Assembly (NCBI RefSeq): GCF_050920415.1
Contig: NZ_CP169309.1
Length of the DNA: 64,000 nucleotides
Reading direction: 5' to 3' (one strand)
Source of the DNA: Escherichia coli
Lineage (GTDB): Bacteria > Pseudomonadota > Gammaproteobacteria > Enterobacterales > Enterobacteriaceae
The position numbers were made by a program. Positions 42,801-48,800 of this stretch are shown here, in pieces (position 1 is the stretch's first letter; each line of letters opens with the position of its first letter).

Positions 42801-45800
42801 TTCATCCCTGGCAACGGTATTCCGGTAGATAGCGTAGTCATTGACCGCAAAATCAACCCGCTACAAATCAAACAAGACGGCGGTAAAGCCTTAAAACTGC
42901 TGGTGCTGTGGCGTAGCGATGAAGATGCGCAGCAACGCCTGAATATGGTGAAAGAGTTCAACGAACTGTGCCATTCACACGGTCTGGTGAGCATCATTGA
43001 GCCGGTTGTTCGCCCGCCGCGTCGTGGCGATAAATTCGATCGCGAACAAGCGATCATCGATGCCGCCAAAGAACTGGGCGACAGTGGCGCTGACCTCTAC
43101 AAAGTTGAAATGCCGCTTTATGGCAAAGGTCCGCAACAAGAGCTTCTCAGTGCTTCACAACGTCTGAATGACCATATCAATATGCCGTGGGTGATCCTCT
43201 CATCCGGCGTCGACGAAAAACTGTTCCCGCGTGCCGTACGCGTGGCAATGACAGCGGGTGCATCGGGCTTCCTGGCTGGTCGTGCCGTCTGGGCATCGGT
43301 TGTCGGTTTACCGGACAACGAGCTGATGCTGCGTGACGTTTGCGCACCGAAATTACAACAACTTGGCGATATCGTCGACGAAATGATGGCTAAACGCCGT
43401 TAAGATGAGGATACAAAAATGAAATGGTTTAACACCTTAAGTCACAACCGTTGGCTGGAACAGGAAACCGATCGCATCTTTGATTTTGGTAAAAATTCCG
43501 TAGTACCGACTGGCTTTGGCTGGTTAGGCAATAAAGGGCAAATCAAAGAAGAGATGGGCACCCATCTGTGGATCACCGCCCGTATGTTGCACGTGTATTC
43601 CGTTGCTGCGGCGATGGGTCGACCTGGCGCTTACTCGTTGGTTGATCATGGTATCAAAGCCATGAACGGCGCACTGCGCGATAAAAAATATGGCGGCTGG
43701 TATGCCTGTGTCAATGACGAGGGCGTGGTGGATGCCTCCAAACAGGGCTATCAACATTTCTTTGCCCTGCTGGGTGCCGCCAGCGCGGTCACAACGGGTC
43801 ACCCGGAAGCGCGTAAGCTGCTCGATTACACCATTGAAATTATCGAGAAATACTTCTGGAGCGAAGAAGAGCAGATGTGCCTGGAATCCTGGGACGAAGC
43901 CTTCAGCAAAACCGAAGAGTACCGCGGCGGCAATGCCAATATGCACGCGGTGGAAGCTTTCTTGATTGTTTATGACGTAACGCATGACAAAAAATGGCTG
44001 GATCGCGCGATTCGCGTGGCTTCCGTCATTATCCACGATGTCGCCAGAAATAATCATTATCGCGTTAACGAGCACTTCGATACCCAGTGGAATCCGCTGC
44101 CGGATTACAACAAAGATAACCCAGCGCACCGCTTCCGCGCATTCGGAGGCACGCCGGGCCACTGGATCGAATGGGGCCGTTTAATGCTGCATATCCACGC
44201 TGCCCTGGAAGCCCGTTGCGAACAGCCTCCGGCCTGGTTGCTAGAAGATGCCAAAGGTCTGTTCAACGCCACCGTGCGCGATGCCTGGGCGCCCGATGGT
44301 GCCGACGGGATTGTTTATACCGTTGACTGGGAAGGCAAACCGGTGGTCCGCGAACGTGTGCGTTGGCCTATCGTCGAAGCGATGGGTACGGCTTACGCGC
44401 TCTACACCGTTACCGGCGATCGCCAGTACGAAACCTGGTATCAGACAAGGTGGGACTACTGCATTAAGTACCTGATGGACTACGAAAACGGTTCCTGGTG
44501 GCAGGAGCTGGATGCGGACAACAAGGTCACCACCAAAGTCTGGGACGGTAAACAGGATATTTACCACCTGCTGCATTGCCTGGTGATCCCGCGTATCCCG
44601 TTAGCACCAGGCCTGGCACCGGCTGTTGCGGCGGGTCTGCTGGACGTGAATGCCAAATAACTGACTGAAAACCCTAACCCTCTCCCCAAAGGGGAGAGGG
44701 GACCGCCCGGCGCAGTTTTTTGGTTTGACATCAGCCTCATGGGAGGCTGTATGCCGTTTTTTAATTAAGGTGCCTCGTATGCAAATCACCAACATGCATT
44801 GCAGTGGACAAACCGTTTCACTTGCCGCGGGGGATTATCACGCGACTATCGTGACGGTTGGTGCTGGTCTGGCTGAATTAACTTTTCAGGGTTGTCATTT
44901 AGTCATCCCGCACAAACCCGAAGAGATGCCGCTGGCGCATCTGGGTAAAGTGCTTATTCCGTGGCCGAACCGGATCGCCAACGGCTGTTACCGCTATCAG
45001 GGACAGGAATATCAGTTACCCATTAATGAACATAGTTCAAAAGCCGCTATTCACGGGCTGCTTGCCTGGCGAGACTGGCAAATTAGCGAATTAACCGCCA
45101 CCAGCGTTACCCTGACAGCTTTTCTACCGCCCAGTTACGGCTATCCGTTTATGCTGGCTTCGCAGGTTGTTTATTCGCTCAATGCTCGCACGGGCCTTTC
45201 CGTTGAGATCGCAAGCCAGAATATTGGTACTGTGACCGCACCTTATGGTGTGGGTATTCATCCTTATTTAACCTGCAACTTAACATCTGTTGATGACTAT
45301 CTTTTCCAGCTTCCGGCAGAACAGGTTTATGCCGTCGATGAGCACGCAAATCCAACAACGCTTCACCCCGTTGATGAGCTGGATTTAAATTTCACGCAGG
45401 CGAAAAAAATAGCCGCGACAAAAATCGACCACACCTTTAAAACCGCTAATGATCTGTGGGAAATGACCATTACCCATCCACAGCAGGCGCTGTTGGTGAG
45501 TCTTTGTTCCGATCAACCCTGGGTGCAGGTTTATAGCGGCGAAAAATTACAGCGTCAGGGACTGGCAGTTGAACCTATGAGTTGCCCGCCTAACGCCTTT
45601 AATTCCGGCACCGATTTATTATTACTGGAACCAGGAAAAACGCATCGCCTGTTTTTTAATATTCACGGGCAGCACAATTAATTTCATTAAGAAAAAAACG
45701 AGATCATTGTTTAGGGTTGTATTTACACAACAGGAAATATTATGGACTTTTTTACGTTATTTTCGCCAGATGGGGCCATGCTGGAAACAAACGTGGTATG

Positions 45801-48800
45801 TATCGTTATCGCGTTGATGTTTCTTTATACCTTTGTGGGGATATGCGCGGGATTTGGTGGCGGTTTAACCACCATGCCACTCGTCACGTTAATGCTCCCC
45901 GTAAAAATGGCAACACCACTTTCGGTAATTGTCGGCACCGCAACCGCCTTGTACGCCACCTGGCTGTCACGTAAAGAAACGGATTGGCGATCGGCAATGG
46001 TACTGATTATTTTCTCGTTTCTGGGAATACCCGTCGGTTTATATGCGCTGTCGTATTTACCCGACCATTTTATGAAAGTGGGCTTAGGCGGATTCCTTAT
46101 CCTTTACTCGTTTTACAGCATGTTTATTCCTCGCCTGCCGATTTATGACCGTAACTGGATCGCCGCACCTATCGGCGCAGTAGCTGGTGCATTAGGTGCG
46201 GCGTTCTCAACCAACGGACCGCCGATGGTTATCTACGGTATGCTGCGTAACTTAGGCCCGGCGGCATTTCGCGGCACTCTGAACGCTTTCTTCACCGCAA
46301 ACAACATCGCGGTAATCGGCGGGCTGGCGACCAGCGGAATTTTGACTGTTTCTATCTTTAAACTGGTGCTGTTTTGTATTCCCACCATGATCCTCGGTTC
46401 ACTGGTTGGACAATATGTGCATAAACGCATTTCAGTCAAAGTGTTCCGTGTGATGGTCTTTTTGTTGCTGATTGCCTCCGGTTCCATGTTGATAAAAGGT
46501 GCGTTGGGAATTCCCGCCGCTGCCGCACTTCTGCCTCCGTTTACCTTGTTAGTTATACTGCAACTGGCATTTGGTAAAAAAGTGGCGGCAATCCGCCGAG
46601 CTGAAGAAAGTAAATAATCACTTGCGCGGGTTTTAATTTATACCCGCACACATTCTTTGATTAATGAAACCTGTAATAACAGGATGGCATGAAATATTAG
46701 TTTTATACTCTATGGAGATTATTTATGGATACGCCACGCCCACAGTTATTAGATTTTCAATTTCATCAGAATAACGACAGTTTTACTCTACGTTTTCAAG
46801 ACCGTCTTATTTTAATCCATAGCAAAGATAATCCTTGCTTATCGATTGGCTCAGGTATAGCGGATATCGATATGTTCCGCGGTAATTTCAGCATTAAAGA
46901 TAAATTGCAGGAGAAAATTGCGCTGACCGACGCCATCGTCAGCCAGTCACCGGATGGCTGGTTAATCCATTTCAGCCGTGGTTCTGACATTAGCGCCACG
47001 CTGCGTATCTCTGCCGACGATCAGGGCCGTTTATTGCTGGAACTACAAAACGACAACCATCACCATAACCGCATCTGGCTGCGTCTTGCCGCACAACCAG
47101 AGGACCATATCTACGGCTGCGGCGAACAGTTTTCCTATTTTGATCTGCGCGGCAAACCGTTCCCGCTATGGACCAGTGAACAAGGCGTTGGTCGCAACAA
47201 ACAAACCTATGTCACCTGGCAGGCCGACTGCAAAGAGAACGCGGGCGGCGACTATTACTGGACTTTCTTCCCGCAGCCTACTTTTGTCAGCACGCAGAAG
47301 TATTACTGCCATGTCGATAACAGCTGCTATATGAACTTCGACTTCAGTGCTCCGGAATACCATGAACTGGCATTGTGGGAAGACAATGCCACCCTGCGTT
47401 TTGAATGTGCGGACACATACATCTCCCTGTTGGAAAAATTAACCGCCCTGCTGGGACGCCAGCCAGAACTGCCCGACTGGATTTATGACGGGGTAACGCT
47501 CGGTATTCAGGGCGGGACAGATGTATGCCAGAAGAAACTGGACACCATGCGTAACGCGGGCGTGAAGGTCAACGGCATCTGGGCGCAGGACTGGTCCGGG
47601 ATCCGTATGACCTCTTTTGGCAAACGTGTGATGTGGAACTGGAAGTGGAACAGTGAAAACTACCCACAGTTAGATTCCCGCATCAAGCAATGGAAAGAAG
47701 AAGGCGTGCAGTTCCTCGCCTACATCAACCCGTATGTTGCCAGCGATAAAGATCTCTGCGAAGAAGCGGCGCAACATGGCTATCTGGCAAAAGATGCCTC
47801 TGGCGGTGACTATCTGGTGGAATTTGGGGAGTTTTACGGCGGCGTTGTCGATTTGACCAATCCTGAAGCATATTCCTGGTTCAAAGAAGTCATCAAGAAA
47901 AACATGATCGAATTGGGCTGCGGCGGCTGGATGGCAGATTTTGGCGAATATTTGCCGACCGATACGTATCTGCATAACGGCGTTAGCGCCGAAATTATGC
48001 ATAACGCCTGGCCCGCACTGTGGGCGAAATGTAACTACGAAGCCCTTGAAGAAACGGGCAAGCTTGGCGAGATCCTTTTCTTTATGCGCGCCGGTTCTAC
48101 CGGTAGCCAGAAATACTCCACCATGATGTGGGCGGGCGACCAGAACGTCGACTGGAGTCTGGACGATGGCCTGGCGTCGGTTGTTCCGGCGGCGCTCTCG
48201 CTGGCGATGACCGGGCATGGCCTGCATCACAGTGACATTGGCGGTTACACCACCCTGTTTGAGATGAAGCGCAGCAAAGAGCTGCTGCTGCGCTGGTGCG
48301 ATTTCAGCGCCTTCACGCCGATGATGCGCACCCACGAAGGTAACCGTCCTGGCGACAACTGGCAGTTTGACGGCGACGCGGAAACCATCGCCCATTTTGC
48401 CCGTATGACCACCGTCTTCACCACCCTGAAACCTTACCTGAAAGAGGCCGTCGCGCTGAATGCGAAGTCCGGCCTGCCGGTTATGCGCCCGCTGTTCCTG
48501 CACTACGAAGACGACGCGCAGACCTACACCCTGAAATATCAGTACCTGTTAGGTCGCGACATTCTGGTCGCTCCGGTGCATGAACAAGGCCGCAGCGACT
48601 GGACGCTCTATCTGCCGGAGGATAACTGGGTCCACGCCTGGACAGGTGAAGCGTTCCGGGGCGGGGAAGTTACCGTTAATGCGCCCATCGGTAAACCGCC
48701 GGTCTTTTATCGCACCGACAGCGAATGGGCGGCACTGTTCGCGTCGTTAAAAAGCATCTAATCACGTCCGCCCGTGGGGAAACTCACGGGCAAAGGGAGA

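Follow-up and report, generated by a model that had tools for sequence, protein, structure and literature searches.

Which protein carries the end product of sulfoglycolysis out of the cell? The question is raised by a 64,000-nucleotide stretch of Escherichia coli DNA (NCBI RefSeq assembly GCF_050920415.1, contig NZ_CP169309.1; hereafter the window), in which a gene of the TauE/SafE family, here called the TauE gene, lies between yihR and yihQ inside the yih sulfoquinovose (SQ) cluster. The gene was flagged in an earlier note, made from the sequence alone, as a possible ancestral cluster member lost in K-12 whose protein might export an anionic sulfur product such as 2,3-dihydroxypropane-1-sulfonate (DHPS) and might alter the end product or flux of the pathway. 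It is an uncharacterised gene that is already in the annotation and belongs to a known type of exporter candidate. The evidence given below makes it very probable that its product is a functional transporter dedicated to sulfoglycolysis.

An intact TauE/SafE gene in the yihR-yihQ spacer

The interval 45682-46724, to which the earlier note had assigned the gene, is the whole yihR-yihQ spacer, and it holds a single long open reading frame (ORF) on the + strand with an ATG start. The features of the gene are as follows.

45742..46617, + strand: coding sequence of a TauE/SafE (TSUP) family membrane transporter, 291 aa (ORF, Pfam, PGAP, AlphaFold2 (AF2) model and dN/dS)
45732..45735, + strand: Shine-Dalgarno AGGA, 6 nt 5' of the ATG (read from the sequence)

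The family assignment of the earlier note was borne out by the hidden Markov model comparison that it had proposed, in which residues 23-248 of the product aligned with nearly the whole of PF01925 (TauE/SafE, the TSUP family, TC 2.A.102; positions 2-235 of the 237 in the model, 121.8 bits, E=4.7e-35), and 5632 relatives were found in the protein library at E<=1e-3. No NCBIfam model, and hence no equivalog, matched the protein. The one RefSeq chromosome that is 100% identical to the window across the TauE region is NZ_CP169399.1 ('E. coli' MFDS1022581), in which PGAP calls the identical coding sequence as WP_000345432.1, 'sulfite exporter TauE/SafE family protein'.

The ratio of non-synonymous to synonymous substitution rates (dN/dS) of the gene was 0.05 against O157:H7, 0.008 against E. 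whittamii and 0.065 against Mangrovibacter, comparable to that of yihQ (0.05-0.07). No stop codons were found in the orthologues compared, the start and the N-terminus MDFFxLFxPDG are kept across genera, and the identity of the protein between Enterobacterales genera is 80-87%. Because dN/dS is low, the orthologues are free of stops and the N-terminus is conserved, the ORF is not a chance one; 45742-46617 is a genuine, intact and functional gene under strong purifying selection. Its composition is host-like, as the earlier note had judged, with a GC content of 0.489 and a third-position GC content (GC3) of 0.531, compared with 0.504 for the GC content of the window and 0.39-0.56 for that of the neighbouring genes.

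An orthologue clade found within sulfoglycolysis clusters

The orthologues form a group with 64-100% internal identity and at most 38% identity to any other TauE protein. A scan of 1.84 billion representative proteins returned one in-clade representative (80% identity, 510 bits), the next full-length relatives outside the clade having at most 38% identity and at most 144 bits; the two nearest outgroup proteins (36-38% identity) lie in contexts unrelated to sulfonates and give no substrate clue. For the locus scan, one genome per prokaryotic species was searched with clade-specific peptide patterns, yielding 28 loci whose neighbouring genes were typed by tblastn against the Yih proteins of the window and a Hafnia reference cluster. 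The clade ranges over Enterobacterales, Vibrio, Aeromonas and one betaproteobacterium, and the orthologue lies inside a sulfoglycolysis cluster at all 28 species loci as well as in Hafnia.

Six of the 28 loci carry a sulfoglycolytic Embden-Meyerhof-Parnas (sulfo-EMP) cluster in which the genes run yihR-TauE-yihQ, and 11 a sulfo-EMP cluster in which TauE follows yihQ and precedes either yihP or yihO (Kluyvera, C. freundii, Pantoea, Lelliottia, Atlantibacter and others). The other 11 resemble the sulfoglycolytic Entner-Doudoroff (sulfo-ED) type and were found in Mixta, Leminorella, Edwardsiella, Buttiauxella, C. amalonaticus, Enterobacter, Vibrio owensii, Aeromonas and Craterilacuibacter; the Hafnia cluster, looked up separately (loci L006/L007, 1-9888), is of the same type. 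These ED-type clusters comprise a LacI regulator, an SSF symporter, an IlvD/Edd dehydratase, an HpcH/HpaI aldolase, a mutarotase, an SMP-30 lactonase, a HIBADH-family reductase, an SDR dehydrogenase and, as the last gene, TauE.

The GH31 protein of the Craterilacuibacter ED-type cluster has R301, W304 and Y508, signature residues of sulfoquinovosidases that are numbered as reportedly in Speciale 2016. The Aeromonas ED-type cluster contains OmpL, YihO and YihP homologues, and in Enterobacter and C. amalonaticus the ED-type cluster physically adjoins yih clusters. On account of these residues, homologues and adjacencies, the gene content indicates that the ED-type clusters act on SQ. The EMP-type and ED-type clusters would thus share the SQ substrate together with an aldehyde reductase (YihU or the HIBADH-family protein), and no sulfolactaldehyde (SLA) dehydrogenase or C-S-cleaving, desulfonating enzyme was found in the 28 clusters, so that their common product should be DHPS. 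In these loci the TauE clade is exclusive to sulfoglycolysis clusters, and the EMP-type and the reductive ED-type have it in common.

The distribution of other transporters differs between these clusters. TauE and YihP occur together in most EMP clusters, and the EMP clusters of Lelliottia and an uncultured Enterobacter have only one GPH symporter plus TauE. The sole other transporter of the ED-type clusters is the SSF Na+/solute symporter, a member of an uptake family, with YihO and YihP homologues in addition in Aeromonas. Enterobacter sp. ENT03 (locus L021, 1113-20873) carries an ED-type and an EMP-type SQ cluster side by side, with one TauE gene and one mutarotase gene between them, and its EMP part is without yihR and TauE.

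The ED-type clusters were also of interest in their own right. They end in a HIBADH-family reductase, where the Pseudomonas putida SQ1 pathway has an SLA dehydrogenase instead, and they occur widely across Enterobacterales, Vibrio and Aeromonas and in a single genome of the Neisseriales (loci L015, L017, L019, L021, L024, L026, L028, L029 and L032-L034). Their gene content implies a putative DHPS-forming variant of the Entner-Doudoroff route, of which no description was found in the papers searched.

Ancestry of the gene and its replacement in K-12

A population survey was carried out on 5426 complete E. coli genomes. The TauE gene is carried by 1295 of them (24%), including O157:H7, and is annotated in RefSeq; in the carriers it is always chromosomal and nearly always intact. 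About 2700 genomes, K-12 among them, have yihR-yihQ without TauE, and approximately 1420 of the 5426 have no SQ cluster at all. The statement in the earlier note that yihR and yihQ are adjacent in K-12 was correct, the two genes being separated there by a spacer of 198 bp.

The comparison of SQ clusters across Enterobacteriaceae suggested by that note placed TauE at the identical yihR|yihQ junction in Salmonella enterica, S. diarizonae, Citrobacter sp., Mangrovibacter, Superficieibacter, an uncultured Enterobacteriaceae member and E. whittamii. Neighbour-joining trees were built for yihR and for yihQ with Salmonella as the root; in both, the Escherichia lineages at the base have TauE, and the TauE-minus alleles branch from among the TauE-plus ones. 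Because the junction is shared with other genera and the TauE-minus alleles are nested in the trees, the TauE gene is an ancestral SQ-cluster member that disappeared on the branch towards K-12, as the earlier note had proposed.

The following features describe the replaced segment, none of them assigned to a strand.

45673..46666: 994-bp TauE-plus segment, delimited by alignments; K-12-type E. coli has about 150 bp of unrelated AT-rich filler instead
45682..45698: left arm of an imperfect inverted repeat, 17 nt, which brackets the TauE gene at the edges of this replaced stretch
46653..46669: right arm of the inverted repeat, 17 nt, pairing with 45682..45698

The filler of about 150 bp consists of the last 9 nt of yihR and 142 bp of spacer, and only the last ~56 bp of the K-12-type spacer are homologous to the window (from 46667). 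The similarity of the remaining ~142 bp to the TauE segment was no better than that of shuffled sequence, and the filler had no match in the TauE gene or in any compared locus. A candidate TauE remnant in the K-12 spacer, suggested by similarity to the ribosome-binding site and ATG in a MAFFT alignment, was not significant (p=0.78), and a clean deletion scar was rejected, the filler being unrelated to TauE and indicating a replacement event. As the event was a replacement and not a clean deletion, its direction was taken from the phylogeny. The identical filler was present in all six of the TauE-minus strains sampled, including a divergent O170:H18 allele at 96% identity, from which it follows that the TauE-minus allele arose once and is old; the K-12 loss was thus a single old replacement event and the K-12 allele is a derived one. 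The first 9 nt of the inverted repeat are perfect (TTTCATTAA / TTAATGAAA), and the repeat scored 11 against 6.1 +/- 1.2 for shuffles (p ~0.003); it is present in O157 and absent from Salmonella. It could be a chance product of the AT-rich sequence or could have helped to bring the replacement about.

Two further observations were made on the populations concerned. Positions 37700-54900 of the window are only ~94-95% identical to typical E. coli, only one or two complete RefSeq 'E. coli' genomes are at least 99% identical to this region, and the window TauE protein is one residue from that of E. whittamii, yet the synonymous divergence (dS) between the two genes is 0.195. The source of the DNA is thus a divergent Escherichia lineage filed under E. 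coli. In the genomes without an SQ cluster, a different eight-gene sugar cluster lies between yihX and yihN (NZ_CP122499.1, 4560476-4569034), the locus of window positions 39700-52400. It encodes an aldose 1-epimerase, two MFS transporters, a Zn-dependent alcohol dehydrogenase, a YihT-like aldolase, a product annotated as yihU (SLA reductase), a sugar kinase and a DeoR regulator, and is without GH31, YihS or TauE genes. Paralogues of YihT, YihU, YihV and CsqR (65-73% identity) are likewise encoded next to the ED-type cluster of C. amalonaticus (locus L017, 15856-19500) and in locus L009. The eight-gene cluster could be a variant sulfosugar pathway.

Proposed function and precedents

In the proposed mechanism, SQ and SQ glycosides would enter through OmpL and then YihO/YihP, and YihQ, YihR, YihS, YihV and YihT would convert them to dihydroxyacetone phosphate and SLA, which YihU would reduce to DHPS, a dead-end anion; the TauE-clade carrier would then release the DHPS anion across the inner membrane. 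After the loss of TauE, the K-12 lineage would export DHPS otherwise, by YihP or by an unlinked carrier. As uptake and efflux each take one step in this pathway, and the SSF and GPH carriers are uptake systems, the TauE protein is the export candidate by elimination. We favour, with moderate confidence, the assignment of the TauE-clade protein as a dedicated DHPS exporter, for which we infer both the substrate and the direction of export. A wider proposal, which we put forward tentatively and consider doubtful, is that the TauE-clade protein and not YihP would be the native DHPS exporter of enterobacterial sulfoglycolysis, both EMP and reductive ED, that YihP would be a second importer, e.g. 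of SQ glycosides, and that K-12 would be a natural exporter-loss mutant with a substitute DHPS route.

The founding members of the family are TauE of Cupriavidus necator H16 and SafE of Neptuniibacter, exporters of sulfite and sulfoacetate, respectively, in C2-sulfonate metabolism. They share with the window protein the family, about eight transmembrane (TM) helices and a Gly-rich motif opening each half, the sequence similarity being at the family level only. They act after desulfonation or on sulfoacetate, whereas the window cluster is without a desulfonating enzyme.

Closer precedents come from sulfoglycolysis itself. A TauE-like sulfolactate exporter was reportedly described by Felux in 2015 in the sulfo-ED cluster of P. 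putida SQ1. Proposed sulfonate exporters of this type are SftE of the sulfoglycolytic transaldolase (sulfo-TAL) pathway in Bacillus aryabhattai and Firmicutes (PMC7491151), SqwE of the sulfoglycolytic transketolase (sulfo-TK) pathway (PMC12890257) and the TauE permease of the Arthrobacter AK04 sulfo-EMP pathway (PMC8873060); TauE transporters in sulfo-EMP and sulfo-ED clusters had already been noted by Denger 2014 and Felux 2015, as they are cited in PMC8940949. These proteins belong to the same Pfam family (PF01925) as the window protein, are likewise encoded in an SQ catabolic cluster beside an importer and an SLA-converting enzyme, and have the same proposed role, the excretion of a C2/C3 sulfonate end product. 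The window clade is separate and tight, with at most 38% identity to the other TauE proteins among the representatives scanned, so that at best it would form a subfamily separate from SftE, SqwE and the P. putida protein. It also differs in occurring in reductase-containing, presumably DHPS-forming clusters, whereas P. putida SQ1 and Arthrobacter form sulfolactate. TauE/TSUP proteins are recurrent exporter candidates in sulfoglycolysis, each of them, the window protein included, a presumed transporter of its sulfonate.

The literature on E. coli has assigned the export step to another protein. As the earlier note had stated, DHPS export in K-12 is credited to a GPH/MFS protein, YihP, as the 'most likely' exporter, an assignment made without a transport assay (PMC6278857). 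Only YihO and YihP are given as transporters of the E. coli pathway in PMC8006165, and a January 2026 review presents YihP as the DHPS exporter without qualification and never mentions TauE (PMC12890257). YihP shares with the TauE protein the operon and the proposed role in DHPS efflux, the two being unrelated in fold and family. Two EMP clusters, and the ED-type clusters apart from that of Aeromonas, have TauE but no YihP; the reverse holds for K-12-type E. coli.

Several points weigh against a DHPS exporter. K-12 excretes DHPS stoichiometrically despite having no TauE gene (PMC6278857), from which it follows that TauE is not essential for export and that YihP may suffice. It is assumed in PMC8940949 that the TauE/TSUP proteins of sulfo-EMP and sulfo-ED clusters bring in SQ along with its glycosides; the TauE/TSUP family is named for an uptake permease, and direction of transport cannot come from sequence. 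The ED-type reductase is 31% identical to YihU and below every NCBIfam cut-off, and we infer DHPS as the product of the ED-type clusters from their gene content. The full-text literature that could be searched yielded neither a functional study of this gene in E. coli or Salmonella nor a transcriptome or proteome of a TauE-plus strain.

Alternative explanations

That the protein imports SQ or SQ-glycerol, adding to or replacing YihO/YihP, is unlikely. The family name and the role given in PMC8940949 both point this way, and SQ is common to the two cluster types that carry an orthologue; however, each cluster already has at least one uptake-type symporter of the GPH or SSF family, and the ED-type and minimal EMP clusters would be left without a linked exporter. 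In K-12, deletion of yihO abolishes growth on SQ, making YihO the importer there (PMC6278857), and most authors give the TauE-type proteins of other sulfoglycolysis pathways an export role.

We consider it quite unlikely that the protein serves as a safety valve for another sulfonate (SLA, sulfolactate or a sulfosugar intermediate) or exports DHPS only under some conditions, with YihP as the main DHPS exporter. TauE and YihP coexist in most EMP clusters and their roles may differ, K-12 copes without TauE, and the TauE-minus allele persists in roughly half of E. coli genomes. Against this, no sulfolactate-making enzyme is present in the TauE clusters, clusters with TauE but without YihP exist, and of the ED-type clusters only that of Aeromonas has a YihP homologue.

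A literal sulfite exporter, clearing sulfite released from a sulfonate, is very improbable, although both the product name assigned by PGAP and the name of the Pfam family suggest one and the C. necator protein is so described (Weinitschke 2007 as cited in PMC5840216). Neither the window cluster nor the 28 related clusters contain a C-S-cleaving enzyme, and with no desulfonating enzyme in the window cluster, sulfite would not be a product of the pathway; the E. coli sulfo-EMP pathway excretes DHPS with no desulfonation (PMC6278857). The identity to any TauE protein beyond the own clade is at most 38%, and the product name is a family-level label that no equivalog model supports with a match.

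Least credible is a recent horizontal insertion or a decaying remnant without a role in the pathway, for which the 17-nt imperfect inverted repeat at the indel borders and the patchy occurrence in E. coli (24% of genomes) might speak, but which is contradicted by the host-like composition, the same junction in Salmonella, Citrobacter, Mangrovibacter, Superficieibacter and E. whittamii, a dN/dS of at most 0.07, the derived position of the TauE-minus alleles in the flanking-gene trees and the finding of no insertion sequence (IS) elements, tRNA genes or target-site duplications around the gene. Insertion by a mobile element was rejected on the latter grounds, the weak AT-rich inverted repeat being all that was found at the borders. 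Of the explanations weighed, export of DHPS is thus the one preferred here.

Architecture of the TauE protein

The AF2 model of the protein, calculated with a 71-sequence alignment as input, had a mean predicted local distance difference test score (pLDDT) of 94.3 and a predicted template modelling score (pTM) of 0.90. It contains two equivalent sets of helices, the first at residues 16-36, 40-49, 54-75, 82-105 and 108-128 and the second at 138-155, 159-168, 173-198, 203-227 and 232-255, a single TM helix being followed in each repeat by a short helix and then by three more TM helices; 8-9 hydrophobic segments were seen in the hydropathy profile. The TSUP family reportedly has about eight TM segments derived from two halves of four, as Shlykov is said to have described in 2012, and the model fits this two-half architecture of about eight TM helices, with one extra helix.

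The glycine-rich two-repeat signature claimed in the earlier note was upheld in its composition and architecture, and not convincingly in the similarity of the halves. Glycine accounts for 28 of the 291 residues, and each half has a conserved core, GFGGG (37-41) and GALGAAFSTNGPP (149-161). In a 71-sequence alignment, which includes relatives of 27-38% identity, G37, F38 and G39 are invariant and G145, G149, A154, G159, P160 and P161 are conserved in at least 90%; each half thus has a conserved Gly-rich motif where its first helix is broken. BLASTP of the halves against each other gave no match. Comparison by hhalign was weak both with 16 sequences (E=0.093 over only 9 columns) and with 71 sequences (E=0.034 over 42 columns), the latter with TM3-4 in register with TM7-8. 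Self-similarity of the halves at the sequence level thus appears only weak or marginal and is not convincingly detectable. No solved TSUP structure was found in the PDB copy, either by sequence or by fold (Foldseek), and the top Foldseek match of the model was BacA/UppP with a TM-score of ~0.45-0.5.

An extra C-terminal helix is present in the model at residues 259-290. Members of the clade from gammaproteobacteria have about 40 additional C-terminal residues (here 255-291), forming a further hydrophobic helix and a basic tail, whereas the chain stops at residue 257 in the Craterilacuibacter orthologue (locus L032, 9965-10774) and near residue 250 in ordinary TauE proteins; the helix is thus absent from the betaproteobacterial orthologue and from ordinary TauE proteins. 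According to the model, the odd number of helices would place the C-terminus on the opposite side of the membrane.

Operon setting and intergenic elements

The genes flanking the TauE gene are listed below.

44779..45681, + strand: yihR, SQ mutarotase (aldose-1-epimerase), upstream neighbour with a 60-bp gap to TauE
46725..48761, + strand: yihQ, sulfoquinovosidase, downstream neighbour with a 107-bp gap from TauE; R301, W304, Y508, D405 and D472 present
41605..44660, + strand: yihU (SLA reductase, making DHPS), yihT (aldolase for sulfofructose phosphate) and yihS (SQ isomerase), upstream
48807..52396, + strand: yihP and yihO (GPH/MFS transporters) and ompL (porin), downstream
39722..41437, - strand: csqR (DeoR regulator) and yihV (sulfofructose kinase), divergently transcribed

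The full set of genes in K-12 order (csqR, yihV, yihU, yihT, yihS, yihR, yihQ, yihP, yihO and ompL) is present in the window, confirming that the TauE gene is embedded in the SQ cluster, csqR-yihV / yihUTSR-[TauE]-yihQPO-ompL, and the TauE gene is the sole difference in gene content from K-12. The window YihU scored 597 bits against NCBIfam NF012005 (cut-off 348), and no SLA dehydrogenase or desulfonating enzyme was found in the window SQ cluster. The suggestion of the earlier note that TauE might change the end product of sulfoglycolysis was therefore rejected, the enzyme set being identical to that of K-12.

A promoter and terminator scan found no sigma-70-like or terminator-like site on the + strand between yihR and yihQ. 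Given this, the common strand and the short gaps, the TauE gene is probably co-transcribed with the SQ operon by read-through from the yihU promoter. In other genera it abuts yihP or starts 9 bp past the preceding gene. Two further elements lie between TauE and yihQ.

46623..46650, + strand: stem-loop GCGGGT...ACCCGC with no U-tract, just 3' of the TauE stop (fold of 46610-46730, z=-3.8)
46670..46683, no strand assigned: palindrome CCTGTAATAACAGG 5' of yihQ, kept in TauE-plus and K-12-type haplotypes

The stem-loop was not called in the terminator scan, and an Rfam search of the TauE spacers gave no match. A hairpin of unlike sequence (locus L004, ~9885-9925) occupies the matching position after TauE in Salmonella and Citrobacter, and the window stem-loop is possibly an intercistronic RNA element or a weak attenuator.

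Some of the other cluster genes also stood out. YihR is the most divergent cluster protein, with 70% identity to Salmonella compared with 84-96% for the others, 91% to E. whittamii compared with 93-100% for the others, and 52-60% in other genera, and its gene (44779-45681) has the lowest GC content among the enzyme genes (0.487). The genes yihO (GC 0.445) and ompL (GC 0.390), at 50233-52396, are markedly AT-richer than the remaining cluster (0.49-0.56).

Significance

The result on TauE is incremental, in that TauE-type exporters were already expected in sulfoglycolysis clusters, and the earlier note had rated it as more novel than it is: 1295 complete E. coli genomes have the gene in their annotation, and TauE in sulfoglycolysis clusters had been reported (PMC8940949). 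What is new here is the ancestral status of the gene together with the K-12 loss allele, the frequency of the gene in E. coli (24%), the exclusivity of the clade and the extra gammaproteobacterial C-terminal helix. SQ breakdown by E. coli and its relatives supplies DHPS to sulfite-respiring, H2S-producing gut bacteria, so the exit of DHPS is a real step in this food chain. The model of the pathway was built on K-12, which carries a derived allele without an ancestral, strongly conserved transporter that is retained in ~24% of complete E. coli genomes, in Salmonella and in many other Enterobacterales. If TauE and not YihP should prove to be the native DHPS exporter, the roles that textbooks give to its transporters would have to be revised.

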